UHGV virus genome: UHGV-1493261 | Strand: one strand, 5' to 3' | Source: a virus | DNA length: 64,000 bases | In this document: positions 2,035-41,438 of the stretch, piece by piece | Layout: each line of letters begins with the position of its first letter | Position numbering within the stretch: the stretch's first letter is position 1 | Notes under the pieces: generated by a model | What the model was told of the DNA's origin: nothing | Database searches by the model: none | Seen by the model: only the letters and a program-made list of their open reading frames with translations | Program-made: the position numbers and the translations under genes

Positions 2035-3543
2035 ATGGCAGACATTCAGATTGTTAAGGTTAACGAAGTCCGCATGCGTTGCATCGCAGATCTTTCTATC
2101 AGGGAAGAACTTAATGACTACTTCAAATTCGAAGACCCGAACTTCGTTCCCAACCCCTTCTCTAAATGGGACGGGGTTGTCCGCCTATTTACCAAGTCAT
2201 CTGGTCTAATCGATATCGGTCTGCTGTTTGAGGTATTTAAGTTCTGTAAGAACAACGGATACACCATTGAACTGGATCCGGCACTGAAGTACATTCAGGA
2301 CATCCCAGATGAAGAAATCCGTGACTTCATCGACAGTCTGCATCCAAAGATCCGCACCGAAAATCACGAATATATCGATGCCGAGACTCGTGACTACCAG
2401 TACGACACCATTGCCAAGGCTATGCGTCAAACCAGATGCGTCTGTGAACTGGCTACGAGTGCCGGTAAGTCCTTTATTCTGTATGTCATGGCGCGGTACT
2501 ACAGGCGGCGCAGAGAAGCTCTCGAAAGTCCTCTGAAGACGCTTATCGTGGTGCCGTCAATCCACCTAGTCACTCAGCTGTACGACAACTTCGAAGAGTA
2601 TGCGCATGGCAGTGATTGGAAGCCCGTTGTTAACACCCAGCTGATTTTTGAGGGCGCGACAAAGGATATCAGCAAACCAATCGTCATCAGTACATGGCAA
2701 GGCATTCAAGACCAGCCGAAGGAATGGTTCCACCAGTTCGGTGATATCGTGGTGGACGAAGTGCACACCTCCAAGTCTGAGAAACTGTCTTACATCCTAA
2801 ACAACTGCATCTATGCCGACCAGCGCCTGGGGGTTACAGGTACGCTGGCGAACACCAAAGTTGCCGGGCTTCAGGTGGTGGCTCACTTCGGGGCGTACCA
2901 TAAGATCATCACGGCTCGCGACCTTATCAATCTCGGGTACGCCACTGACATCAAAGTGAAGATGATTCAGCTGAAGCACACTCCGGCGGATGCCGTTGGT
3001 CTGGACGGGGATTATTCCAAGGAAATAGAATACCTTATTACACACCAGTCCCGCAACGAACTGATCGCAAAGATGGCGCTGAATCTGAAAGGAAACGTGG
3101 CCATCATGTTCGAGCGTATTGATGGCCACATGATGGTCGTGTATGATATGCTGAGCGCAGTCAAGCCCAACGTGTTTGTCATCAACGGGGAAGTGAAGAT
3201 CGAAGACCGCCGCCACATACAGAAAGCGATGGAGGACGGAGAGGACATCACCCTGTTAGCATCATACGGAACAATGCAGCAGGGTGTGTCAATCAATAAG
3301 CTGCACCACCTTGTACTGGCACACCCGAGCAAGTCATATATCCGCGTCATACAGACATTGGGTCGTCTGATGCGTCAGCACTCCTCTAAGGACGTTGCGT
3401 GGATATGGGACTTAGTTGATGATGCATCGTATAACGCCAGCACGAACCACGCTCTTAGGCACTCTCATGAGCGTTACAAGTTTTACCTGGCAGAGCGCCA
3501 CCCTGTGGAGTTCATGAAGGTGGCGCTGGGTAATCACGATTAA
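2035..3543 (+). CDS. uvsW: UvsW-like SF2 DNA helicase
   Basis: Start moved to ATG 2035 (GGGAGA RBS) inside track ORF 1942..3543. Walker A ATSAGKS, DEVH box, and C-terminal LHHLVLAHPSKSYIRVIQTLGRLMRQHSSKDVAWIWDLVDD nearly matching T4 UvsW LHHVVLAHGVKSKIIVLQTIGRVLRKHGSKTIATVWDLIDD. Confidence 0.85.
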   Translation: MADIQIVKVNEVRMRCIADLSIREELNDYFKFEDPNFVPNPFSKWDGVVRLFTKSSGLIDIGLLFEVFKFCKNNGYTIELDPALKYIQDIPDEEIRDFIDSLHPKIRTENHEYIDAETRDYQYDTIAKAMRQTRCVCELATSAGKSFILYVMARYYRRRREALESPLKTLIVVPSIHLVTQLYDNFEEYAHGSDWKPVVNTQLIFEGATKDISKPIVISTWQGIQDQPKEWFHQFGDIVVDEVHTSKSEKLSYILNNCIYADQRLGVTGTLANTKVAGLQVVAHFGAYHKIITARDLINLGYATDIKVKMIQLKHTPADAVGLDGDYSKEIEYLITHQSRNELIAKMALNLKGNVAIMFERIDGHMMVVYDMLSAVKPNVFVINGEVKIEDRRHIQKAMEDGEDITLLASYGTMQQGVSINKLHHLVLAHPSKSYIRVIQTLGRLMRQHSSKDVAWIWDLVDDASYNASTNHALRHSHERYKFYLAERHPVEFMKVALGNHD

Positions 3544-3911: not shown

Positions 3912-4074
3912 ATATTACTCTCGTGTGTTGGTTAACATGACATACATATTATTTCGCGTGCATGTTTAGACCAAATAAATTAATTTTGCTGTTGAATAAA
4001 AACTGCTTTCTTGTTGAACAATGGCGTGGTATTATACGAGTTGTGAGCGTTAGCGAACAACGAGTATTTGTTTT

Positions 4075-4094
4075 ATGAGCGAAGCGAATAGGAT
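4075..4094 (+). repeat. 20-mer ATGAGCGAAGCGAATAGGAT, copy 1
   Basis: Exact 20-nt match to the reverse complement of 49249-49268. Both copies are directly preceded on the + strand by TATTTGTTTTA. Confidence 0.7.
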
Positions 4095-4101
4095 TAATAA
4101 A

Positions 4102-4140
4102 GATTATTATCTTTAATAAAGGTTATTATCTTTAATAAAG
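4102..4140. repeat. AT-rich tandem direct repeat (2 x 19-20 bp, plus partial third copy)
   Basis: TTATTATCTTTAATAAAG at 4104-4121 and again at 4123-4140; partial copy ATTAATAAAG at 4093-4102. In the 360-bp intergenic region upstream of gp45. Confidence 0.7.
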
Positions 4141-4272
4141 TCCATAAATGCCGAAGGCATTTATTATAACGCGTAGCGCAATTTGCCACTTGTTCTATAA
4201 GCAAAACACAGCGATACTAGATTGCGTCAAACATGACTTGAATCCCCCACTATATTTTGAGGATACATACAA

Positions 4273-4941
4273 ATGCAAGAGATCACTCTCTCCGAACGTA
4301 CACTTCAGTTGCTGGCCAACTTTGAGACCATCAACCCATCTATCGTTCTGACACCGGGCAAGATGCTGCGCAGTATTAATGATTCTTCTACTGTGATCGC
4401 CGTGGCGCAGATCGAAGAAGACTTCCCGTTTGAGTTCCCGATTCTGGACCTGACCAAACTTCTGGCCATCCAGCGCCTACCTTCCTTCAAAGGTGCCAAA
4501 GCCGAATTTCATCAGGACTACATCCTGTTGAAAGGTGAAAGCTCTCAACTGCAGTTCTGGCGCTCCGCCAAAGAACTGACTGTGGTCCCGGCCGACACCA
4601 TCGAACTGCCTTCCGTCGACTTTGAAGCGATCATCACTCCAGAGAAGATGAAAGAACTGACCCGCGCCTGTTCTACCCTCGGACACAAGACTGTGCGCCT
4701 GGTTGCTCAGGGTGGCAAAACACGCCTGGTTGCAACCACCACTACCCTAGACAACTCCAACAACTACACTGTTGAGCTGGGCGAAACCGCACTGCCGGAC
4801 TTCGTAATGCCGCTGGATGTTGCCAACCTGAAAATGATCGAAGGCAACTACACTCTGCGTGCATGTGCTGATCTACAGATGGTGAACTTCCAATCATCCG
4901 ACGCGACGATCAATTACTTCGTCGGCGCACAGATTGAGTAA
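4273..4941 (+). CDS. gp45: sliding clamp (gp45-like)
   Basis: 222 aa, GAGGA RBS. N-terminus LSERTLQLLANFETINPSIVL parallels T4 gp45 LSKDTTALLKNFATINSGIML. Immediately followed by the clamp loader genes. Confidence 0.75.
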   Translation: MQEITLSERTLQLLANFETINPSIVLTPGKMLRSINDSSTVIAVAQIEEDFPFEFPILDLTKLLAIQRLPSFKGAKAEFHQDYILLKGESSQLQFWRSAKELTVVPADTIELPSVDFEAIITPEKMKELTRACSTLGHKTVRLVAQGGKTRLVATTTTLDNSNNYTVELGETALPDFVMPLDVANLKMIEGNYTLRACADLQMVNFQSSDATINYFVGAQIE

Positions 4942-4961: not shown

Positions 4962-5000
4962 ATAATGTGTGGGCGGGGCGTTCCCCGCCTATTTGAAATG
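4962..5000 (+). promoter_or_regulatory. TATAAT / GC hairpin / ATTTGAAAT cassette upstream of gp44
   Basis: TGcTATAAT (4962-4967), hairpin GGGCGGGGCGTTCCCCGCC (4972-4990), TATTTGAAAT (4991-5000), then GAGG RBS and ATG 5022. Confidence 0.5.
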
Positions 5001-5021
5001 ATTCTTCTACACGAGGCTGAA

Positions 5022-6011
5022 ATGTCTAATATCACTATCGTTTCCGACCAGTACGCATGGGAAAACAAGTACCGCCCTGACAACCTGGACGAGATTATCA
5101 TCCCTCAAGACGTCCGCGCTAAAATCCATGGCTACATCACCAGCGGCAACGGCAACATCCCGTCTATGCTGTTCTACTCCCCTCAGCCTGGTACTGGCAA
5201 GACTACCTCTGCTCTGGCCGTGTGTAATGAAATCGGCTGTAAGCAACCACTGATGATCAACGCATCCCTGGACAACAGCATCGACGTTATCCGTGACCGC
5301 GTGATTCAGTACTCTACTGGTGTGAGTGTATTCGGTGGCCGCAAAGTCGTTATTCTCGACGAAGTAGAGCGTCTGTCTATGGCGGCACAGGAGTCGCTGA
5401 AGGGTATTGTGGAGAAAGTCTCCAAGAACTGTTCATTCATCCTGACCACCAACGCCAAGCAACGCGTGAACGAACCTCTGCGCTCTCGTTGCCGTGAAAT
5501 CGACTTTATCTGGAACGAGCAGGAAGCACTGGAAGTTCAGAACAAGTTCTGTTTGCGTTGCGTTGAAATCCTCCGCGCCGAAGGTGTTGAGTTCGTTCCC
5601 CAGGTTCTGGCTGCTATCGTTAAGCGCCATTTCCCCGATAATCGCCGCATTATGGGCACCCTGCAGGATAACGTCACCACCTATGGCAAGATTGACGAAC
5701 GCGCCCTGGCTGTGCTGAAAGCAGGCGATATGGGCACGCTGGTCGGTATGCTGAAGACTGAAGATTGGGCTGGTATGAAGCAATGGGTGACTGACAACCA
5801 GAACTACATCACAGAAGACTTCTATTCTCGCTTCTTCCAATTCTGTGTACCACAGGATAAAGAGAAGCCGACGATGGTTAAGAACGAGTCTATCCCAGAT
5901 CTGGTCTGTGTCTGTGGTCAGTCACAAATCGAACATCGTCAGGTGGGTGATGTGTGGCTTCACGCCGTTTATTTCCTGACCAACGTCATGCTCAACATTA
6001 AGTGGAAGTGA
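5022..6011 (+). CDS. gp44: clamp loader large subunit (gp44-like AAA+ ATPase)
   Basis: Start at ATG 5022 (GAGG RBS) inside track ORF 4965..6011. ENKYRPDNLDEIIIPQD vs T4 EQKYRPSTIDECILPAF; Walker A GTGKTT; ILDE Walker B; SRC-like SRCREI. Confidence 0.85.
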   Translation: MSNITIVSDQYAWENKYRPDNLDEIIIPQDVRAKIHGYITSGNGNIPSMLFYSPQPGTGKTTSALAVCNEIGCKQPLMINASLDNSIDVIRDRVIQYSTGVSVFGGRKVVILDEVERLSMAAQESLKGIVEKVSKNCSFILTTNAKQRVNEPLRSRCREIDFIWNEQEALEVQNKFCLRCVEILRAEGVEFVPQVLAAIVKRHFPDNRRIMGTLQDNVTTYGKIDERALAVLKAGDMGTLVGMLKTEDWAGMKQWVTDNQNYITEDFYSRFFQFCVPQDKEKPTMVKNESIPDLVCVCGQSQIEHRQVGDVWLHAVYFLTNVMLNIKWK

Positions 6012-6015
6012 TACG

Positions 6016-6438
6016 ATGGCCGCTCCTGCACTGTTCGATTTCCGCAACGCGCTCATGGAAACGAAGGAAGATATCCTCCGCACGACTGACCCAGAAGTGT
6101 TGAAGGCATTTGACCCGTTCATGATCCGGCGCTGTTTTGCTCAGAGTAAGGACACACTGGTAACGGCAGAGCAGTTGAATAAACTGCACGCCATCACGCC
6201 ATGGATGCAATGGTCATATGCCTTTTACACCATTCCGGCTCGGAAACGCTACGACAAATGGTCTAAGAAAGGTCCGATTGATCCTGACGTGAAGTTACTC
6301 TCAGAGTACTTCTACATCAGCATGGAGAAGGCATCGGAGTACGTCCGTTTCTTGCCGAAGGAAGTTCTGGCCGAGATACGCGAGAAGATGGGACGTACTG
6401 AGCTGAACGCCAAAGCGAAACCGCGCAAGGCTAAGTAG
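6016..6438 (+). CDS. gp62: clamp loader small subunit (gp62-like)
   Basis: 140 aa directly after gp44. ARKRYDKWSK resembles T4 gp62 RGKRYGKWAK. Synteny 45-44-62-regA. Confidence 0.65.
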   Translation: MAAPALFDFRNALMETKEDILRTTDPEVLKAFDPFMIRRCFAQSKDTLVTAEQLNKLHAITPWMQWSYAFYTIPARKRYDKWSKKGPIDPDVKLLSEYFYISMEKASEYVRFLPKEVLAEIREKMGRTELNAKAKPRKAK

Positions 6439-7843: not shown

Positions 7844-7876
7844 AACAGAGGCTATAATGGCCTCTGTTTTCTTATT
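7844..7876 (+). terminator. rho-independent terminator with TATAATG loop
   Basis: ACAGAGGC / loop TATAATG / GCCTCTGT followed by TTTCTTATTCT, after the stop at 7821. Confidence 0.6.
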
Positions 7877-7889
7877 CTGTGAGGATACC

Positions 7890-9086
7890 ATGAAAGACAA
7901 AGCCCTGGACGTCCCGTACTGCGGTGTCCGCGAAGAAAAGATAAAGTCGGCCAAACCGGTTCTCAGTCCGACCCATACCCGCCTGTCTTACGAATGGATG
8001 CGCGATCGTTATCAGATCCACGTCAAGAAGGACGTCCAGCGCCTTCCTGCTCCTTGGACTGATAATCCCATATTACGCCAGGTTAAATTCTGTAACGTCC
8101 GGAGAGAGCACGACAGGCAGTCTCTCAACCTGATCAATAACATTGTCAAGAACGATGCTCTGGGCATGGCAGACAAGATGTTCAACTGCGTGTTGTTCCG
8201 CATGTTCAACCTCTGGGATCCGATCCAGGCTATCGGCGGCGCGATGACGATCAAAGAATTCGCCAAGATCAACCTCGATGCAACCCGCGAACGACTTCAG
8301 AAGTTCGAGGCCGACGGCGGTAAAGTATTCACCAATGCCTTCAACACGGGCGGTCTGAAGCAATGCCTGGCTTTCCCTGAGATGGTTGTCAACCACAAGG
8401 AGCAGCGCTTCGGTGGGATGATGGTGAATCTGATCTGTAAAGACGGTTCAACCCAGAACATGGATTATAAAGAAGCCAAGGCGATAGCCGAAGCAGAGCC
8501 GGACTTCTACACCATCGAAGGTTGGGAACCGTACATGCCAATGCGTGTCATCCGCTCCCTGAAGGCATTCGTCAACAAGTATCCAAATTATTTCCATGAC
8601 CTGCTGCGCCTTGATACGCCTTTGGAAGTATACCAGCGCATGTACGACGACATCGAAGGGCTTGGTCCATTCCTGGCCTATCAGATCTGGGTTGATTTCA
8701 CGTACATTCCTGGATATCCTTTCAGTGAGAACCACTTCACGGTTGCTGGACCAGGCTGTCGCGCAGGGATTGATCTTCTGTTCCTGAACAAAGACGGTAT
8801 GACCCACGAAGAATGCATCTTCTGGTTGCGGGACAATCAGGACGCAGTTTATGGTCCTCTTGGGTATAACAGGGAAGAATTTTGGTCTGAGGAAGAGCCT
8901 TGGGATCGCCATTTAAATATAATGGCAGGAGAAAATATGTTTTGTGAACTTCAGAAATATACCCGTTGTGTAGAGGCCATACAGCAAGGTAAAAAACCGC
9001 GCGGGAAGGTTGGATACGATGGGGAAGGACGACCTAAAGCGACGACATCTGGTTCTAAAAACCTACTAAATTTATTTAAAAAGTAA
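7890..9086 (+). CDS. hypothetical protein (aromatic-rich, about 399 aa)
   Basis: Start at ATG 7890 (GAGGA RBS) downstream of the terminator hairpin at 7844-7876. Track ORF 7857 begins inside that hairpin. No recognised motif. Confidence 0.55.
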   Translation: MKDKALDVPYCGVREEKIKSAKPVLSPTHTRLSYEWMRDRYQIHVKKDVQRLPAPWTDNPILRQVKFCNVRREHDRQSLNLINNIVKNDALGMADKMFNCVLFRMFNLWDPIQAIGGAMTIKEFAKINLDATRERLQKFEADGGKVFTNAFNTGGLKQCLAFPEMVVNHKEQRFGGMMVNLICKDGSTQNMDYKEAKAIAEAEPDFYTIEGWEPYMPMRVIRSLKAFVNKYPNYFHDLLRLDTPLEVYQRMYDDIEGLGPFLAYQIWVDFTYIPGYPFSENHFTVAGPGCRAGIDLLFLNKDGMTHEECIFWLRDNQDAVYGPLGYNREEFWSEEEPWDRHLNIMAGENMFCELQKYTRCVEAIQQGKKPRGKVGYDGEGRPKATTSGSKNLLNLFKK

Positions 9087-9145
9087 CTTACTTTGTGAGT
9101 TAATAAAGTATATTATAACAGGAACTTTCATTTGGAGTTCCTGTT

Positions 9146-10075
9146 ATGTTTTACGAATTATTGATTTCTAAAGGCGGTAAACCGCATTTTATCAAGAAGT
9201 ATTTGAGGATGATTCAATCTTTCAAATATTCTGATGGTGACTACACTGAATTACACCACATCCTTCCCAAGAGCATGTTCCCTGAATATTCTAAAGATAA
9301 GATCAATTTGGCAAGACTTACTGGCAGGCAACATTATCTTGCCCATGTGTGTTTGGCCTTGGCTTTCCCGAATTCTGATATGGTATATGCTGTTATTTTG
9401 ATGAGCCGTGGGGGTAGGTATACACCAACGGGTATAAAATTTAATTCTCACCTTTACGAAAAGTTAAGGAAAGAATTTGGACAAAGAATATCCAAACTCA
9501 CAAAGGGTGTCTCTAAATGCGTCGGGGCAAACAACCCAATGTATGGGAGAAGAGGAAAGAATAATCCCCAATATAGATATAAGAGAACTCCAGAGCAAGT
9601 CAAGAAAATTACCAAAGGATTGATGAAAATCCATGAAAGGATGGCTTCTGATCCTGAATATAAAAGGCGGGTTTTAGAGAAACGCCGCGCCAACATGGAT
9701 TTAGAACAATTTTCTGAACGTGCCAGGAAAGCTAAACTTGGGGAACTTAATCCAAATCATGGCAAAGATATTACCAACACGTTTACCCCTGAACAACGAC
9801 AGAAACAAATAGAAGGTATTAGAAAAGCCCATTTATCAAAAATGCCCTGGGAGAAACCGCGTTGGTCTGATGAAAAGGACATGTATTGGGCGAAAGCTGA
9901 TAAATTCCTTGAAGCAATGAAAACAATGAAAAGAGCGGAAGCCCTCATGCATGTGTACGGAACAAAGGATTTGAAGGCTTTTAATGCGACAAACAGCATT
10001 ATCGAACGTTTCAATAGAGGGTGGGAACCTTTGAAATGTCCTAAATGGACAGAACGATACGGTTCTTCTGAATAA
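9146..10075 (+). CDS. HNH homing endonuclease with NUMOD-like repeats
   Basis: ELHHILPKSMFPEY...NLARLTGRQHYLAHV (HNH motif); NPMYGRRGKNNPQY and NPNHGK repeats. Visibly AT-rich codons compared with flanking genes. Free-standing between conserved genes. Confidence 0.8.
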   Translation: MFYELLISKGGKPHFIKKYLRMIQSFKYSDGDYTELHHILPKSMFPEYSKDKINLARLTGRQHYLAHVCLALAFPNSDMVYAVILMSRGGRYTPTGIKFNSHLYEKLRKEFGQRISKLTKGVSKCVGANNPMYGRRGKNNPQYRYKRTPEQVKKITKGLMKIHERMASDPEYKRRVLEKRRANMDLEQFSERARKAKLGELNPNHGKDITNTFTPEQRQKQIEGIRKAHLSKMPWEKPRWSDEKDMYWAKADKFLEAMKTMKRAEALMHVYGTKDLKAFNATNSIIERFNRGWEPLKCPKWTERYGSSE

Positions 10076-10138
10076 AGATTCCCTTTACTTCGTTCTTCAA
10101 TAACTCAATCCAGCGTATATTGACCTCACTTAAACGAA

Positions 10139-10178
10139 GCGCCCTGGCAAACGGGGCGCACATTTGAACTGAAACAGG
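10139..10178 (+). promoter_or_regulatory. GC hairpin / ATTTGAA cassette
   Basis: Hairpin GCGCCC-loop-GGGCGC (10139-10159) then ACATTTGAACTGAAAC and GGAAGATTACATCATG 10190. Confidence 0.4.
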
Positions 10179-10189
10179 AAGATTACATC

Positions 10190-12208
10190 ATGTCAGATTT
10201 TAAGTCCTTCGCAGTAGCTGTCAACAATAACGTGCTGGCCATGTCAGCAACTGGTCTGTTCATGACCAACATCGATAAAGATGCTCTGTGGGATCTGTAT
10301 CTGTCTTCTTTCCCTGCTGGCACTAACCCGCTTTATCGTGAGCGTACCGAGCACGACTGCACCTGCTGTAAACAATTCATCCGTAACATTGGCGGTGTGG
10401 TCACCATCGACTCCGACCTGAACGTGATCTCTATCTGGGATAACATTCAGCTGGGTAACGAATACGACGTTGTCTCTGCGGCGCTGTCAGCGTATGTTAA
10501 GCAGCACGCAATCGTCGACGTGTACTTCAACGACACCAAGAAAGTTGGTGTTGAGTCGAATCACGAAATGAAAGACGGTATTGTCCGCACCTACAACCAC
10601 TTCCACACCGACCTGCTGGGTAGCTATGTTCTGCGGGCAGATACCATCGCTTCTAAGAAGGGTGAAATCCGCCAGGCGATTGAAGTGTTTGAGCGCGGCC
10701 TGCGCGAACTGTCTCTGGAATCGGCTGAAATCGTCCTGGAACTGATCGATCAGAATTCTCTGTATCGCGGTGAAGAGCACAAAGCGGCAGTGCAGGCGTT
10801 CGTGGTGAACAAGACCATGTACGAACAAACTGCAGAAGAGAAACGCGCTCTGTGGGCTTGGCGCACTGGCTACCGTGCAAACGGTCATACCCCTCACGGC
10901 ATTCGTAATACCGTGATTGGCTCTCTGCTGGTAGACCTCAATGAAGGCCGGGATCTGGAAACCGCCGTGAAGTCCTTTGAAGCCAAAGTCGCTCCGACGA
11001 ACTACAAGCGCCCGACTGCGCTGGTGACAAAGTCGATGATCGAAAACGCGCAGAAAGAAGTCGAAGCGCTGGGTCTGACTGATTCGCTGGGTCGCCGTTA
11101 TGCCGTGTATGACGATCTGACCATCAACAACGTTCTGTTCGCCGATCTGGCAGCGCAGAAGAAGATGGACCCGTTTGCTCAACTGGCGTCTGAAGTGAAG
11201 ACTCCGACCAAGTCCCTGGATAAGGTTGAAGAGATCACCATCGACGACTTCCTGGCCAACGTGTTGCCAAAGGCGCATTCCATGGAAGTGCTGGTTGAGA
11301 ACTCTCACATTGGCAACCTGATGTCTCTGATCGCTCCGGCGAACCCAGATGCACCTAACCTGTTCAAGTGGAACAACGGCTTCAGCTGGTCATACAACGG
11401 TGAAGTGGCAGACTCCATCAAAGAGCGCGTGAAGACCGCTGGTGGCAACGTTGACAGCTTCCTCCGTGTGTCACTGGCTTGGCATAACAACGACGACCTG
11501 GATCTGAGCCTGAACGATCCTCTTCACAACCACGTGTACTTCCGCAACCGTCGTTCGTCAACAGGTGCAACCCTGGACATCGATATGAACGGTATGGATG
11601 GCATTGACCCAAATCGCCGTCCGGTGGAGAACATCTTCTTCAGCGATGAACGCAAGCTACGTGACGGGAATTATGAGTTCTATGTCACCAACTACAACAA
11701 GCGTGAAACCTGTGACGTTGGCTTCGAAATCGAAGTCGAATACAAAGGCCAGACCAAGCGCTTCTCACATCCTGGTCTGGGTAACAAAGATCGCACGTTG
11801 GCTGTTGTGGTTCAGGTTCGCGCTGGTCAGGTAGTAGACATCCGTTCCACCCTGAAAGACGACGAACGCTCTCAGGAAATCTGGGGTATCAAGACTGCTA
11901 CCTTCCAGAAAGTACAGCTGGTCCTGAATTCACCAAACCATTGGGACGGCGAGCAGACGGGCAACAAGCACGTGTTCTTCATCCTGGAAGGTTGCGCCAA
12001 CCCTGTGGGCACCCGTGGCTTCTACAACGAATATCTGAAGCCGGAACTGGATAAACACCGCAAGGTTTTTGAAATGTTAGGTGGTAAGATTAAAGTACAG
12101 CCAAGCACTGAGCAGCTGTCCGGTCTGGGCTTCTCTACCACCCAACGCAACCACGTGTTCGTGAAGGTGAGCGGCTCGTTCAACCGCACTGTGAAAGTTG
12201 TGTTCTAA
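10190..12208 (+). CDS. hypothetical protein (672 aa)
   Basis: Long ORF with strong initiation context GGAAGATTACATCATG and upstream GC hairpin plus ATTTGAA element. No GHKL motifs, so not rIIA-like. Function unknown. Confidence 0.7.
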   Translation: MSDFKSFAVAVNNNVLAMSATGLFMTNIDKDALWDLYLSSFPAGTNPLYRERTEHDCTCCKQFIRNIGGVVTIDSDLNVISIWDNIQLGNEYDVVSAALSAYVKQHAIVDVYFNDTKKVGVESNHEMKDGIVRTYNHFHTDLLGSYVLRADTIASKKGEIRQAIEVFERGLRELSLESAEIVLELIDQNSLYRGEEHKAAVQAFVVNKTMYEQTAEEKRALWAWRTGYRANGHTPHGIRNTVIGSLLVDLNEGRDLETAVKSFEAKVAPTNYKRPTALVTKSMIENAQKEVEALGLTDSLGRRYAVYDDLTINNVLFADLAAQKKMDPFAQLASEVKTPTKSLDKVEEITIDDFLANVLPKAHSMEVLVENSHIGNLMSLIAPANPDAPNLFKWNNGFSWSYNGEVADSIKERVKTAGGNVDSFLRVSLAWHNNDDLDLSLNDPLHNHVYFRNRRSSTGATLDIDMNGMDGIDPNRRPVENIFFSDERKLRDGNYEFYVTNYNKRETCDVGFEIEVEYKGQTKRFSHPGLGNKDRTLAVVVQVRAGQVVDIRSTLKDDERSQEIWGIKTATFQKVQLVLNSPNHWDGEQTGNKHVFFILEGCANPVGTRGFYNEYLKPELDKHRKVFEMLGGKIKVQPSTEQLSGLGFSTTQRNHVFVKVSGSFNRTVKVVF

Positions 12209-13067: not shown

Positions 13068-13940
13068 ATGACAAATCGTACTGGCATAAAACTCACTCCT
13101 GAAGTCCTGAAGTCACATATCGCTGAGGTGATTTACGAAGACCGCGAAGTCGGCGGTCACCGGGCTATCACTTGTCATTTCAAGATGGATAACGGCTTCG
13201 TCGTTCACGGCACCAAGCCCAGCACATCCATAGACCCGGCCAACTTCGATGAAGCCCTGGGCAAAGAGATTTCCTACAATAACACCTTCGACCAGCTGTG
13301 GCAGCTGGAGGCGTACCGGGCGCTTGTTGAACAAGATCTGTTGGCCAAAGCCACGGAAACGGCAGAGATACAGATCGATCAATACGCTGTTGAACGTAGC
13401 GCCCTCTGTCCGGCCTATCACCTCGGCTTCAATGTGATGGTTCAGGAAGTGATGTTCAAAGCGGAAAATGGTGAGCGCTTCTTGGCATCTTTCGTTTGTG
13501 GGCCGGATGACATGGAACTTGTTGTTGAATCTCACAACGCCAAATCTCGTAAGGCTGTTAGTGATTTCCTGCGCGCCAACTCCAAACTCGATCTCACTTA
13601 TTCGCCATTGGTTCTGCGCATCGCCAAGATTTGTCATGAAGCCAACCGCGCATACTGCAAGTCTATTGGTGACGACTCTCAACTGCCTTGGGAACAATCT
13701 CCGGCCTGGCAGCGTGAGAGCGCTTGCAAAGGTGTTATCTTCCATCTCACTGGTGATCGTAAGCCCAGCGAATCGCATGAGAGATGGATGGCGGAGAAGG
13801 AGTCTGAGGGATGGGTGTATGGCCCAGTCAAAGACCCTCAGACCAAGCAACACCCTTGCATGGTTCCGTATGGAGAACTCCCGGTACAACAACGCTCCAA
13901 AGATTATATTTTCAAATCCATTGTAGACTCCTTTAAATAA
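13068..13940 (+). CDS. RyR-domain protein
   Basis: C-terminal HERWMAEKESEGWVYGPVKDPQTKQHPCMVPYGELPVQQRSKD matches the ryanodine-receptor (RyR) repeat pattern (W..GW.YG...D...K.HP.L.PY..L). N-terminal 200 aa unassigned. Confidence 0.6.
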   Translation: MTNRTGIKLTPEVLKSHIAEVIYEDREVGGHRAITCHFKMDNGFVVHGTKPSTSIDPANFDEALGKEISYNNTFDQLWQLEAYRALVEQDLLAKATETAEIQIDQYAVERSALCPAYHLGFNVMVQEVMFKAENGERFLASFVCGPDDMELVVESHNAKSRKAVSDFLRANSKLDLTYSPLVLRIAKICHEANRAYCKSIGDDSQLPWEQSPAWQRESACKGVIFHLTGDRKPSESHERWMAEKESEGWVYGPVKDPQTKQHPCMVPYGELPVQQRSKDYIFKSIVDSFK

Positions 13941-13974
13941 GCTCTGAATAATATTTCAACCTGTCAATAATATA

Positions 13975-14010
13975 ATGCCCGGTTATATTCAATCGGGCAT
14001 TTTTATTATA
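13975..14010 (+). terminator. rho-independent terminator
   Basis: ATGCCCG / 12-nt loop / CGGGCAT then TTTTATTAT. Preceded by TATAAT at 13971-13976. Confidence 0.55.
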
Positions 14011-14090
14011 TTAATTGGCATCAATACCGCCTGTCGTAATATAATAGTCCCATGTTGAAATAGTTGGGAAATATAACTCACGAGAGCCTG

Positions 14091-14267
14091 ATGACCGACA
14101 ACAAATTAAAACGCGCCGGACTTGATTGTCTTGACAATTCATTCCGCCCCAGTGATGTTCTGGTCGCCCAAATGGAAAACAACCGGGATTTCATTGAAAC
14201 TATGCTGGAGAACGCCGACGCGAACTCCAAACACTCCAAAGCCCAAAAAGGTCAAAACGATGATTGA
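14091..14267 (+). CDS. small hypothetical protein (58 aa)
   Basis: ATG 14091 after GAGAG; charged helical peptide; stop overlaps the start of the vWA gene by 8 nt. Below the 60-aa cut-off from this start. Confidence 0.3.
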   Translation: MTDNKLKRAGLDCLDNSFRPSDVLVAQMENNRDFIETMLENADANSKHSKAQKGQNDD

Positions 14268-36516: not shown

Positions 36517-37128
36517 ATGAGCAAAATCTTTATCCCGTCACACCGCGAAGGATGTGAAATCGCGGCCAACTACCTGCGCGGTCGCATGAACTGCGGCGCT
36601 GTCTTCATCGAGCCAAATTCGTTTGACAACAAAGAATCACCTGATGCCATCGGGTTCCGTTCCGGCGGTTGCTCTATCCTGATGGAAGTGAAGGTGTCTC
36701 GCTCTGATTTCCTTACCGACAAGAAGAAGCCTCATCGCATGGATCCGACGACGGGCATGGGCGCATACCGCTTTTATGTCTGCCCTCAGGACGTGATCAG
36801 GGTTGAAGACCTACCACCGAAGTGGGGGCTGTTCTACTTCACACCCCGCAAGTCCCTGATGCCAGTTCATGTGCCAGACATGCGGTACTCTTTATTGTCA
36901 TCACCAGATCATTATCAGAAGTACCTTGATGAACAGATCAAGAGAGGAAGAACCGTTACTCGGCATATGCGCAGCTACATGGAACTCCTCGAAGGCTTCG
37001 CCCACTTTGAGCGCAACACTGCCGGGGAGCAGAATATCCTGTATGGGGCTTGGCGCCAACTGTGTATAGCTCAAAGTCGTGGTGTAGACTATACTGTGAC
37101 CGAAGTGTTCCAGAGGCCGAAGATCTAA
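36517..37128 (+). CDS. hypothetical protein, possible PD-(D/E)xK nuclease
   Basis: Start at ATG 36517 (AAGGAAAGGA RBS). PDAIGFRSGGCSILMEVKVS gives a D...E.K arrangement. Stop overlaps the HNH gene start (TAATG). Confidence 0.45.
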   Translation: MSKIFIPSHREGCEIAANYLRGRMNCGAVFIEPNSFDNKESPDAIGFRSGGCSILMEVKVSRSDFLTDKKKPHRMDPTTGMGAYRFYVCPQDVIRVEDLPPKWGLFYFTPRKSLMPVHVPDMRYSLLSSPDHYQKYLDEQIKRGRTVTRHMRSYMELLEGFAHFERNTAGEQNILYGAWRQLCIAQSRGVDYTVTEVFQRPKI

Positions 37129-37784
37129 TGAACTATCAAAAAATTCATGACGCTATAATAACCAGAGCCAGGGATAGAATTTTAACTGGTTACAAGGAAA
37201 AACACCACGTCATCCCTCTATCTCTTGGTGGTGAAGACAGGAACTACAATAAAGTTTCTCTCACAGCATCTGAACATTATATTATTCATCTTCTGTTGGC
37301 AAAAATTCACGGCGGGGTAATGGTCAGCGCATTTAAAAAGATGCGCCACTTGACCTCTAATCCTCCAAACAATAAAGAATTTGCCGCCAGGAGGGAATTG
37401 TTGTGTACGACAGCCGGAGAGAAAGCGAAAGATCCACAAAAACGGAAAAATCATTCTCTGAAAATGAAGGGTAGAAACCATACAGAATCTACCAAATTGT
37501 CAATATCTAATTCCATGACTGGGGAGAATAACCCAATGAAGGGGATACCTGCATGGAGGAATCCGACCAACATCAGCCGAGGAACCCATAAAAATTGGTT
37601 GGCGGCTGGAGAAATTTATGACTTGTACATCACAGGGAAATTTTTAAGAGTTATCGACCTCTTCAATGCTTGCAAATTGCCGACATCATACGGAACGGTT
37701 TCCACCATAAAAACAAAATTGGAATTGGGTTGGAAACCAAGGAAAGACGCGGATTGGTTGCAATTCTATGAGGAACACAAATGA
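37128..37784 (+). CDS. HNH homing endonuclease
   Basis: Start at ATG 37128 inside track ORF 37050. HHVIPLSLGG...N...SEHYIIHLL (HNH); GENNPMKG NUMOD-like. AT-rich codons. Inserted immediately upstream of the primase gene. Confidence 0.75.
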   Translation: MNYQKIHDAIITRARDRILTGYKEKHHVIPLSLGGEDRNYNKVSLTASEHYIIHLLLAKIHGGVMVSAFKKMRHLTSNPPNNKEFAARRELLCTTAGEKAKDPQKRKNHSLKMKGRNHTESTKLSISNSMTGENNPMKGIPAWRNPTNISRGTHKNWLAAGEIYDLYITGKFLRVIDLFNACKLPTSYGTVSTIKTKLELGWKPRKDADWLQFYEEHK

Positions 37785-40578: not shown

Positions 40579-40643
40579 TACCGCAATTCCTCAAGTTCAC
40601 TTTCACTTTAAATACCTCTGCATTCATTGTGGAGGTATTTCTT

Positions 40644-41438
40644 ATGGCCATTCTAAAACTTGGCAACCGTGGCACTGAAGTGAAGGCACTTCAGAATAGC
40701 CTCAACAAAATCGGCTTCACCCTCGTCGCTGATGGTATCTTTGGCAAGGCAACAGAGAACGCTGTCAAGACTGTTCAGGCGGGTGCGGGGCTTGTCATTG
40801 ATGGTATCGTGGGTCCAAAGACCTCCTATGCTATTCGCAACGCCGGAGACGCCCATCAGGATCATCTAACTGAGTCAGACCTGATTGATGCTGCTAACGA
40901 TCTGGGTGTTGACCTCGCCTCTGTCAAGGCGGTGAATCAGGTTGAGTCACGCGGTACGGGCTTCACCAAGTCAGGTAAGATCAAGACATTGTTTGAGCGC
41001 CACATCATGTATAAGAAGCTGACGGCGAAGTTCGGGCAGGCTCGGGCGAATGCCATGGGACATATGTACCCGACGTTGGTCAGCCCTTCCGCAGGCGGGT
41101 ACACGGGTGGCGACGCGGAGTTGGATCGACTTCATGCAGCGATCAACATCGACGAGGATTGTGCGTACGAGAGTGCCTCATACGGCCTCTTTCAGATCAT
41201 GGGCTTCAACTGCCAGGTCTGTGGGTATGCCAACGCCAAGGAGATGTTCAACGACTTCCTGACAGGCGAACGCGCTCATTTGATGGCATTCGTGAAGTTC
41301 ATCAAGGCTGACGCCAAGCTCTGGCAGGCTCTGAAGGACAAGAACTGGGCTGAGTTTGCGCGGCGCTATAATGGTCCGGCATATGCCAAGAACCAGTACG
41401 ACACGAAGCTCGCTGCTGCATACCGCAGCTTCAGTTAA
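40644..41438 (+). CDS. endolysin: peptidoglycan-binding domain plus N-acetylmuramidase-like domain
   Basis: Start at ATG 40644 (GGAGG RBS). N-terminal LKLGNRGTEVKALQNSLNKIGF...DGIFGKATENAVK...DGIVGPKT (PG_binding_1 repeat). C-terminal VNQVESRGTGF ... YGLFQIMGFN muramidase-like motif. Terminator at 41443-41470. Confidence 0.7.
   Translation: MAILKLGNRGTEVKALQNSLNKIGFTLVADGIFGKATENAVKTVQAGAGLVIDGIVGPKTSYAIRNAGDAHQDHLTESDLIDAANDLGVDLASVKAVNQVESRGTGFTKSGKIKTLFERHIMYKKLTAKFGQARANAMGHMYPTLVSPSAGGYTGGDAELDRLHAAINIDEDCAYESASYGLFQIMGFNCQVCGYANAKEMFNDFLTGERAHLMAFVKFIKADAKLWQALKDKNWAEFARRYNGPAYAKNQYDTKLAAAYRSFS

Follow-up and report, generated by a model that had tools for sequence, protein, structure and literature searches.

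The endonuclease gene and its AT-rich setting

We analysed a stretch of 64,000 nucleotides of the virus genome UHGV-1493261 (the window, meaning the whole stretch at its full length) and focused on a free-standing HNH homing endonuclease gene (HEG) located on its + strand at positions 9146-10075. An earlier note on this DNA, made from the letters alone, had described the gene as a mobile island of low GC content with a ribosome-binding site embedded in a hairpin. The open reading frame (ORF) runs from ATG to TAA and encodes 309 amino acids. It sits between the gene of a 5-hmdU DNA kinase (7857-9086, + strand), which matches Pfam PF18723 (HMUDK_hel, helical domain) at 1e-78 over residues 41-376 of 409, and a conserved 672-aa gene of unknown function (10190-12208, + strand; phrog_1735, listed as DUF8224). 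The window belongs to an Ackermannviridae phage of the Agtrevirus-like (ViI-like) type; its closest match was Escherichia phage RPN242 (95% over 4.5 kb), and Ag3, SKML-39, YX22 and AV101 were identified as further relatives.

The AT-rich island proved to be real. In the first 60 nt of the HEG, estimated earlier at about 30% GC, a direct count gave 18/60 (30%), and the ORF is indeed more AT-rich than its neighbours. Its GC content was 0.392 against a window mean of 0.494 ± 0.027 (z = -3.7), and its GC content at third codon positions (GC3) was 0.384 against 0.574 (z = -3.1), both the lowest values among 78 ORFs; only 0.5% of 930-nt segments were equally AT-rich. As GC3 was equally depressed, an effect of amino-acid composition was ruled out, and the composition of the gene is foreign or atypical, synonymous sites included. 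Along the locus, the sliding GC content dropped from 0.50-0.55 to 0.35-0.41 between ~8900 and 10100, the low-GC tract beginning at ~8850, inside the upstream kinase gene. The GC content was 0.51 in the 5' part of the kinase gene (7857-8850), 0.43 in its 3' part (8851-9020), where mosaic haplotypes occur, 0.36 in its tail (9021-9086), 0.29 in the 59-nt leader from the kinase stop to the HEG start (9087-9145), 0.39 in the HEG and 0.52 in the downstream gene.

The encoded protein matched phrog_655 ("homing endonuclease", 2e-60) and, over residues 16-92, phrog_12434 ("HNH endonuclease", 5e-18). The HNH catalytic core is located at 9248-9346 (residues 35-67, ELHHILPK...N54...H63...H67), and residues H37, H38, N54, H63 and H67 were invariant in an alignment of seven diverse homologue N-terminal domains. 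When the profile of this alignment was compared with solved structures, the best match was the HNH domain of a group II intron reverse transcriptase (6me0, TEIHHILPK..NLV..H..H; E = 0.03) and the third-ranked was McrA (6ghc, E = 0.84); in both, the HNH motif is residue-for-residue in line with the window protein, so that the catalytic His and Asn residues to be expected from the earlier HNH label are in place. An AlphaFold model (mean pLDDT 71, N-terminal blocks 80-91) placed strands at residues 34-38 and 55-59 and a helix at 60-73, consistent with a beta-beta-alpha core, which is weak evidence for the fold. A phmmer search of the whole protein against PDB sequences returned spurious coiled-coil matches only. 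Based on motif and profile we accept the HNH identity.

The NUMOD label given to the protein earlier was only partly borne out. Repeats of the GxNNPxYG type are visible by eye (GANNPMYG, GKNNPQY and GELNPNHG), located in GANNPMYGRRGKNNPQY (9524-9580, residues 127-145) and in a further copy, GELNPNHGKD (9737-9766); however, Pfam NUMOD3 (PF07460) reached only E = 0.59 on the window protein, with 10.6 bits against a cut-off of 20.4. The domain is present in the orthologue P0005, and the paralogue P0010 scored 5e-5. The C-terminal module (9728-10072, residues 195-309), presumed to bind DNA, is common to the GIY-YIG endonuclease F-LimVI described below. Pairwise dN/dS values of 0.05-0.24 and an intact ORF in nine of nine orthologues indicate that the protein is maintained by purifying selection. 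Public records already label orthologues as homing or HNH endonucleases, and no experimental study of them was found in the literature searched.

The window contains a second free-standing HNH gene (37128-37784, + strand; 218 aa), with the motif KEKHHVIP...N...EH..H and a Pfam NUMOD3 match at 1e-6. With a GC content of 0.408 it ranks second-lowest among the ORFs of the window, and its start and the end of the upstream ORF overlap. A dip in GC content (0.37-0.40) was also observed at 13800-14200, in a 214-nt gap before ORF 14155.

Concerning the kinase, phage ViI encodes two predicted paralogues, gp67 and gp243, both among the five ViI products sufficient for the synthesis of 5-NeOmdU, a thymidine hypermodification that was reconstituted with them (PMC5889632). 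The window kinase was assigned at the level of this family. Its gene adjoins clamp-loader genes (4965-6438).

Distribution and extent of the cassette

At this locus, the HEG is absent from YX22, SKML-39, Ag3, Vi01 and Marshall and present in RPN242, AV101, Det7, phiD3, Mansal, SeF6a and PM10. Its distribution is thus sporadic among close as well as distant relatives, and occupied and empty states are mixed within genera. A query spanning the left junction (9021-9200, extending from the tail through the leader to nt 55 of the HEG) was 90-99% identical in 43 records from three genera (38 Salmonella, 3 Dickeya and 2 Escherichia phages), and an uninterrupted empty site, with at least 80% of the query covered, was found in 132 of 274 records. 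Orthologues with 57-58% protein identity occupy the same place in two metagenomic contigs.

Compared in 100-nt bins with the Kuttervirus phages SeF6a and PM10, the window was 96-100% identical at ~8800-9700, whereas the flanks (kinase body and downstream gene) were only 63-90% identical. Within the kinase gene, identity to these phages was 93-99% over 8800-9000 and 63-78% over 8400-8800; to the HEG-less YX22 and SKML-39 it was 61-77% over 8800-9000, against 90-98% further upstream. The kinase segment 8851-9020 is probably a co-conversion tract flanking the cassette. The endonuclease ORF is itself mosaic: positions 9760-9900, which link the NUMOD3-like repeat to the C-terminal module, were only 56-60% identical to all isolate orthologues compared, and among the homologues found the metagenomic protein P0001 was closest. 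A sporadic distribution combined with an element more alike than its flanks is what would be expected for a mobile homing endonuclease gene, and supports this reading; all computational tests that the earlier note had proposed for it came out in its favour.

The boundaries of the cassette were derived by aligning alleles with and without the insertion. Within the kinase gene these cease to be homologous after ...GKVGYDG, at ~9021; homology returns at CTGAATAAAGA, which represents the final codons and the stop of the native kinase gene. This right junction, CTGAATAA (10068-10075, + strand), now forms the end of the HEG ORF in the window (...GSSE and stop), and the resumption is exact in the window, RPN242, Mansal, Kamild, AV101, Det7 and SeF6a. 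The native kinase tail of all empty alleles, GGEYKKRCDEVVLKRGSVNLLDRLKKPE, is replaced in the window by the substitute C-terminal tail EGRPKATTSGSKNLLNLFKK (9021-9086, + strand; codons 389-409), and every HEG+ allele, from three genera and two metagenomic relatives, has an AT-rich tail of the type EGQPKATTSGSKNLLNLFKK, which is shorter than the native one. This replacement concerns the last ~28 codons of the kinase, and the swapped part lies outside the Pfam match. At the DNA level, ~96 nt of the kinase 3' end are exchanged for ~1046 nt (tail, leader and HEG), a divergent 66-nt tail taking the place of the native sequence in every HEG+ allele. This alignment shows the element to be larger than that of the earlier note, reaching from ~9021 to 10067 and comprising the substitute tail, the leader and the HEG. 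The type of tail is strictly linked to the HEG ORF, and the junctions are identical in all configurations.

The substitute tail retains the motif GS.NLL..[LF]KK. As it still ends in this conserved motif, the function of the kinase is probably preserved while the original DNA sequence is destroyed, and this destruction of the native 3' end would be the simplest source of self-immunity. On the other side of the cassette, the native intergenic region upstream of the 672-aa gene (10076-10189, + strand) is intact despite the insertion, with 93-96% identity to the empty alleles of YX22, SKML-39 and Marshall, and holds the hairpin GCGCCCTGGCAAACGGGGCGC at 10139-10159.

Other origins of the insertion were considered. 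A search of 8300-10600 for Rfam intron families returned none, the only match being a sub-threshold, miRNA-like one that reflects the hairpin described below, and an intron-borne origin was rejected as no intron family was found at the locus. Transposon-like ends were rejected likewise, as no terminal direct or inverted repeats occur at the cassette boundaries. An 11-nt complementarity between 9091-9101 and 9495-9505 was at chance level and not conserved in AV101.

All tail variants (window 9046-9083 and equivalents) keep a C-terminal motif [GR]S.[NS]LL..[LFMI].K(K), examples being GSKNLLNLFKK, GSVNLLDRLKKPE, SRSLLDMIRK and SINLLEKMKK. We take this motif, speculatively, to resemble the C-terminal sliding-clamp-binding peptides of T4-type replication and late-transcription proteins.

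The slot behind the kinase gene also holds other ORFs. A 74-aa ORF (phrog_19743) follows the HEG in AV101 (L004, 2778-3002), Det7 (L006, 2566-2790) and SeF6a (L012, 3552-3776). A 135-aa ORF with weak Zn-ribbon matches is the sole occupant in SilasIsHot (L009, 1594-2001), and in phiD3 (L008, ~2574-3060) a 135-aa ORF of the Zn-ribbon type, unannotated and read by eye from the DNA, stands after the HEG. The metagenomic relative L014 carries a 120-aa ORF in the slot (3926-4288). Each configuration has its own kinase tail variant. Upstream of the kinase gene, overlapping its start, a 209-aa endonuclease gene annotated as homing or HNH was observed in Marshall (L005, 586-1215) and Kamild (L010, 387-1016), so that the Kamild kinase gene is flanked by endonuclease genes on both sides.

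The leader hairpin and expression of the endonuclease

The leader of the HEG contains the top-ranking inverted repeat of the region. The earlier note had proposed a 9-bp stem beginning at 9120, with the GGAG ribosome-binding site in the loop. The perfect inverted repeat ACAGGAACT/AGTTCCTGT is present, but its 9-nt arms are located at 9118-9126 and 9136-9144; the perfect DNA palindrome comprises 12 bp (9115-9126/9136-9147), and the predicted RNA hairpin 15 bp (9114-9148, + strand), with the 5' arm at 9114-9128, a CAUUU loop at 9129-9133, the 3' arm at 9134-9148 and a free energy of -17.2 kcal/mol for the hairpin alone. Contrary to the earlier placement, GGAG (9134-9137) lies at the top of the 3' arm, engaged in two G-U and two Watson-Crick pairs. 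It precedes the AUG (9146-9148) by 8 nt, and the AUG is also paired in the 3' arm. That the Shine-Dalgarno sequence (SD) and the start codon are both inside the stem strengthens the idea of a translational throttle. The TATAAC motif reported upstream of the hairpin does exist at 9114-9119, but a role as promoter was unsupported; it belongs to the 5' arm, where it pairs with GUUAUG.

According to fold prediction, the ribosome-binding site lies within a structure of exceptional stability. For the whole leader the folding energy was -30.4 kcal/mol, compared to -12.3 ± 2.6 for shuffled sequences (z = -7.0; none of 200 shuffles was as good). Among 77 ORF starts, that of the HEG has the most stable structure from -36 to +6 (-17.8, the mean being -5.5 ± 3.5) and also ties for the highest pairing probability over -14 to +3 (0.86). 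The hairpin is kept in all orthologues examined. In Det7 and Mansal a U-A pair is changed to U-G. The metagenomic orthologue L017 has five substitutions in the arms, all of which preserve pairing, and its SD is moved to GAGG; in the metagenomic orthologue L014 the basal 7 bp around the AUG are kept, including an A-U to G-C double change, and the upper stem is loosened.

The 5' part of the leader, CTTACTTTGTGAGTTAA (9087-9103), directly after the substitute kinase stop, is almost invariant in nine HEG+ loci. This holds even at 57% identity of the HEG protein, and with synonymous divergence of the HEG reaching 0.8 to saturation. The element may pair with HEG codons 5-10, the outer helices formed in this way being plausible in the folding model, or may be a promoter-like element resembling the native TTTACTT-N8-AATAAC downstream. 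A metagenome scan with the conserved leader motif for more diverse leaders gave no match, and scans of viral contigs for more leaders returned known isolates and chance matches only.

The kinase stop lies 60 nt upstream of the HEG AUG, a distance at which a ribosome terminating there would not open the inner stem. The HEG, for which no promoter of its own could be recognised, is probably expressed from the kinase transcript, and the best reading of the modelled structure is that its translation on this transcript would be throttled constitutively, the hairpin keeping the production of the endonuclease low. An operator function of the leader, resembling the homing site as in I-TevI, was rejected, as the local alignment of leader and empty site was no better than shuffles.

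A rather improbable alternative is a temporal switch of the T4 type, in which the hairpin would form only on read-through of the kinase operon, and a promoter in the leader (e.g., around TATTATAAC, 9111-9119) would start late transcripts within the 5' arm and thus free SD and AUG. Hairpins that sequester the ribosome-binding site control I-TevI, I-TevII, I-TevIII, segB and Aeh1 mobE, and a late promoter usually bypasses the inhibitory arm (PMC2988022). ViI-like phages encode homologues of gp55, gp33 and gp45, and late promoters of the TATAAATA type have been proposed for them (PMC3121705). Overlapping the 5' arm is an A/T-rich block, TATATTATAAC, which is conserved as TATAGTATAAC in L017 and TATAAAATAGC in L014, but its conservation is equally explained by pairing with GUUAUG. 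TATTATAAC with at most one mismatch is over-represented in the window (15 occurrences, 6.0 expected). Against such a switch, no 8-mer in 9087-9145, read by eye, exceeded a 5/8 match to TATAAATA, and a scan of 8700-10400 for sigma-70-type promoters and terminators found nothing on the + strand of the leader. Three exact copies of TATAAATA occur in the window, none near the HEG, and the extended late-promoter consensus derived from AG3, also judged by eye, does not fit the leader.

A further reading, which we consider unlikely, gives the inverted repeat a role chiefly on the transcript: placed at the end of the kinase message as a partial intrinsic terminator, an attenuator or an element of RNA stability, it would limit read-through into the HEG instead of blocking ribosome binding. 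The repeat does lie 28 nt after the kinase stop, hairpins are common in the intergenic regions of the window, and UUUUAC follows directly after the 15-bp stem (UUUUAU in Det7, AV101, Mansal and phiD3). However, the tail contains only 4 U, and the terminator scan made no call; the U-run represents Phe-Tyr codons of the ORF and is missing in L014 (UUGCUG), though the base of the hairpin is kept there, and the stem includes the SD and stops precisely at the AUG, neither of which is required of a terminator. Termination and a block of translation are not mutually exclusive.

Several other start regions of the window showed structures of their own. Upstream of ORFs 10190, 17253, 17811, 21167, 32545 and 46262 we observed a recurrent layout, consisting of a GC-rich hairpin, (C)ATTTGAA, ~6-9 nt and AGGAAC(T)ATA(T/C)C ATG, often with TTTACTT...TTC(A/T)ATAAC blocks further upstream, which has the appearance of a promoter or leader signal specific to this phage. 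The 5' arm of the HEG hairpin, ACAGGAACT, resembles the SD context of this layout. The second most stable start-site structure (-16.1 kcal/mol) is located at 40579-40643, upstream of ORF 40644-41438 (264 aa), where the GGAGG Shine-Dalgarno sequence is paired within AATACCTC...GAGGTATT. In a 361-nt gap before ORF 4273, at 4140-4170, the hairpin AAATGCCGAAGGCATTT precedes a second exact TATTATAAC (4162-4170).

Related homing endonucleases and interpretation

Among known systems, the T4-type Mob endonucleases (MobA-E), and especially Aeh1 mobE, come closest to the window HEG, with an N-terminal HHxxP...N...H...H head followed by NUMOD-type repeats (NUMOD3-like in the window protein). Mob genes are likewise free-standing, in the orientation of their neighbours, without a recognisable promoter of their own, and located at or in genes of nucleotide or DNA metabolism, Aeh1 mobE being hairpin-controlled in a nucleotide-metabolism gene. 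Mob-like genes of Tevenvirinae were found as distant tblastn relatives (28-47% over the HNH region), and the orthologues in Det7 and Mansal are annotated as "T4 MobE-like" and "MobD". In contrast to the Mob genes, the window HEG resides in the Ackermannviridae, with hypermodified thymidine DNA, and its target is a 5-hmdU DNA kinase gene. Furthermore, Aeh1 mobE splits nrdA into two polypeptides, whereas the window kinase remains unsplit, as a substitute C-terminal tail with its stop codon comes with the cassette, and no late promoter is visible in the window hairpin. I-TevI of the T4 td intron shares with the window HEG a stable hairpin over an SD ~8 nt upstream of the AUG, which in I-TevI limits translation of read-through transcripts. 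It differs in being an intron-encoded GIY-YIG enzyme whose mapped late promoter circumvents the hairpin and whose operator is similar to its homing site, while the window HEG has no intron, no TATAAATA-like promoter and a similarity of leader and empty site not above shuffles.

A parallel at the locus itself is F-LimVI, encoded by ORF114 of Dickeya phage LIMEstone1, with orthologues in Kamild and JA15 (Limestonevirus), which occupies the same slot after the same kinase gene. The C-terminal ~115 residues and the right junction (...RYGSSE and stop) are common to both enzymes. In BLASTP, the window protein was 50% identical over residues 84-309 to the F-LimVI-type protein P0009, with 46 of the last 48 residues identical, and the 3'-end DNA of the Kamild gene (L010, 2198-2983; proteins P0008 and P0009) was identical to that of the window at 44 of 45 positions. 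The head of F-LimVI, in contrast, is of the I-TevI-like GIY-YIG type (YVYR...GxFYYG) and unrelated to the HNH N-terminus of the window protein. F-LimVI has been classed as GIY-YIG (PMC3296691), and P0009 gave sub-threshold GIY-YIG matches. Its gene starts 1 nt after the kinase stop, suggesting translational coupling, lacks a leader hairpin and is preceded by a different kinase tail variant (...KSRSLLDMIRK and stop). Judged from these alignments, the HNH enzyme of the window and F-LimVI appear to be a natural swap of nuclease heads on a common module. The HNH enzymes I-HmuI and I-HmuII of the Bacillus phages SPO1 and SP82, which carry NUMOD-type DNA-binding modules, likewise act in phages with a modified base, 5-hydroxymethyluracil replacing thymine in their DNA; unlike the window HEG, they are encoded by introns of the DNA polymerase gene and nick their substrate. 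No sequence match to them was detectable in PDB searches with the window protein.

We consider it likely that the element is a mobile, free-standing HNH homing endonuclease cassette in the 3' end of the kinase gene of a ViI-like, Agtrevirus-type phage, with translation limited by a hairpin. During mixed infections, the protein would cut HEG-less genomes in or next to the native kinase tail, and repair by recombination from the HEG+ genome would copy the cassette, together with some flanking kinase sequence, into the cut genome. HEG+ genomes would be immune since their native 3' end is swapped for a recoded, shorter tail.

Several observations weigh against this explanation. No HNH model of Pfam (E up to 10) or NCBIfam (E up to 1) matches the 309-aa protein, the distant homologue P0011 giving a sub-threshold match to PF01844 (E = 0.006). 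The cleavage site is not derivable from the sequence. The tract that the window shares with SeF6a and PM10 stops inside the HEG at ~9750, so that this exchange was a recombination between two HEG+ genomes and not the invasion of an empty site. Covariation of the leader structure was not significant, with 8 distinct sequences in which most pairs are invariant and 25 of 500 shuffles reaching the observed percentage of paired positions; the case for the hairpin therefore rests on its stability, its outlier status and its conservation. Finally, an SD and AUG that are fully sequestered, with no visible bypass, leave the production of the protein hard to explain.

Very improbable, in our judgement, is a domesticated or non-homing nuclease (serving, e.g., inter-phage exclusion or another phage function), spread by ordinary recombination only, with the kinase tail as mere lineage variation: purifying selection across deep divergence, one crossover inside the ORF in the exchange detected with SeF6a/PM10 and the lack of an activity study of any orthologue in the literature searched would fit it, but the strict tie of the tail type to the ORF across three genera and two metagenomic relatives, the identical junctions, the foreign composition of the ORF, the GIY-YIG endonuclease with the common C-terminal module in the same slot and the large number of such genes in these phages (14 in LIMEstone1; PMC3296691) speak against it.

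Beyond the homing cassette as such, a more tentative proposal is that the kinase 3' end serves as a contested landing pad, where an HNH endonuclease, a GIY-YIG endonuclease on the same C-terminal module, a 74-aa ORF and a Zn-ribbon ORF have been seen. Each occupant would bring its own recoded kinase C-terminal peptide, and this surrogate tail would both destroy the target, conferring immunity, and restore a required motif, GS.NLL..[LF]KK, which may bind the sliding clamp and so tether the kinase to newly replicated DNA. In the HNH/GIY-YIG pair, nuclease heads would have been exchanged naturally on a single recognition module, both enzymes being directed at the same site in phages with hypermodified DNA.

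Taken alone, the HEG cassette is a routine mobile endonuclease gene, and its regulatory theme is known from T4-type endonuclease genes. The kinase 3' end and the adjacent ORFs are prone to recombination and hence unsuitable as lineage markers. The locus shows, however, how a free-standing HEG can land in the coding end of a host gene without splitting it, by means of a replacement tail, and the HNH/GIY-YIG pair with one DNA-binding module will be useful for studying the modular assembly of homing endonucleases. As part of the thymidines are 5-NeOmdU in the phages in which the enzyme must act, it also raises the question of whether modified DNA or only newly replicated DNA is cut.

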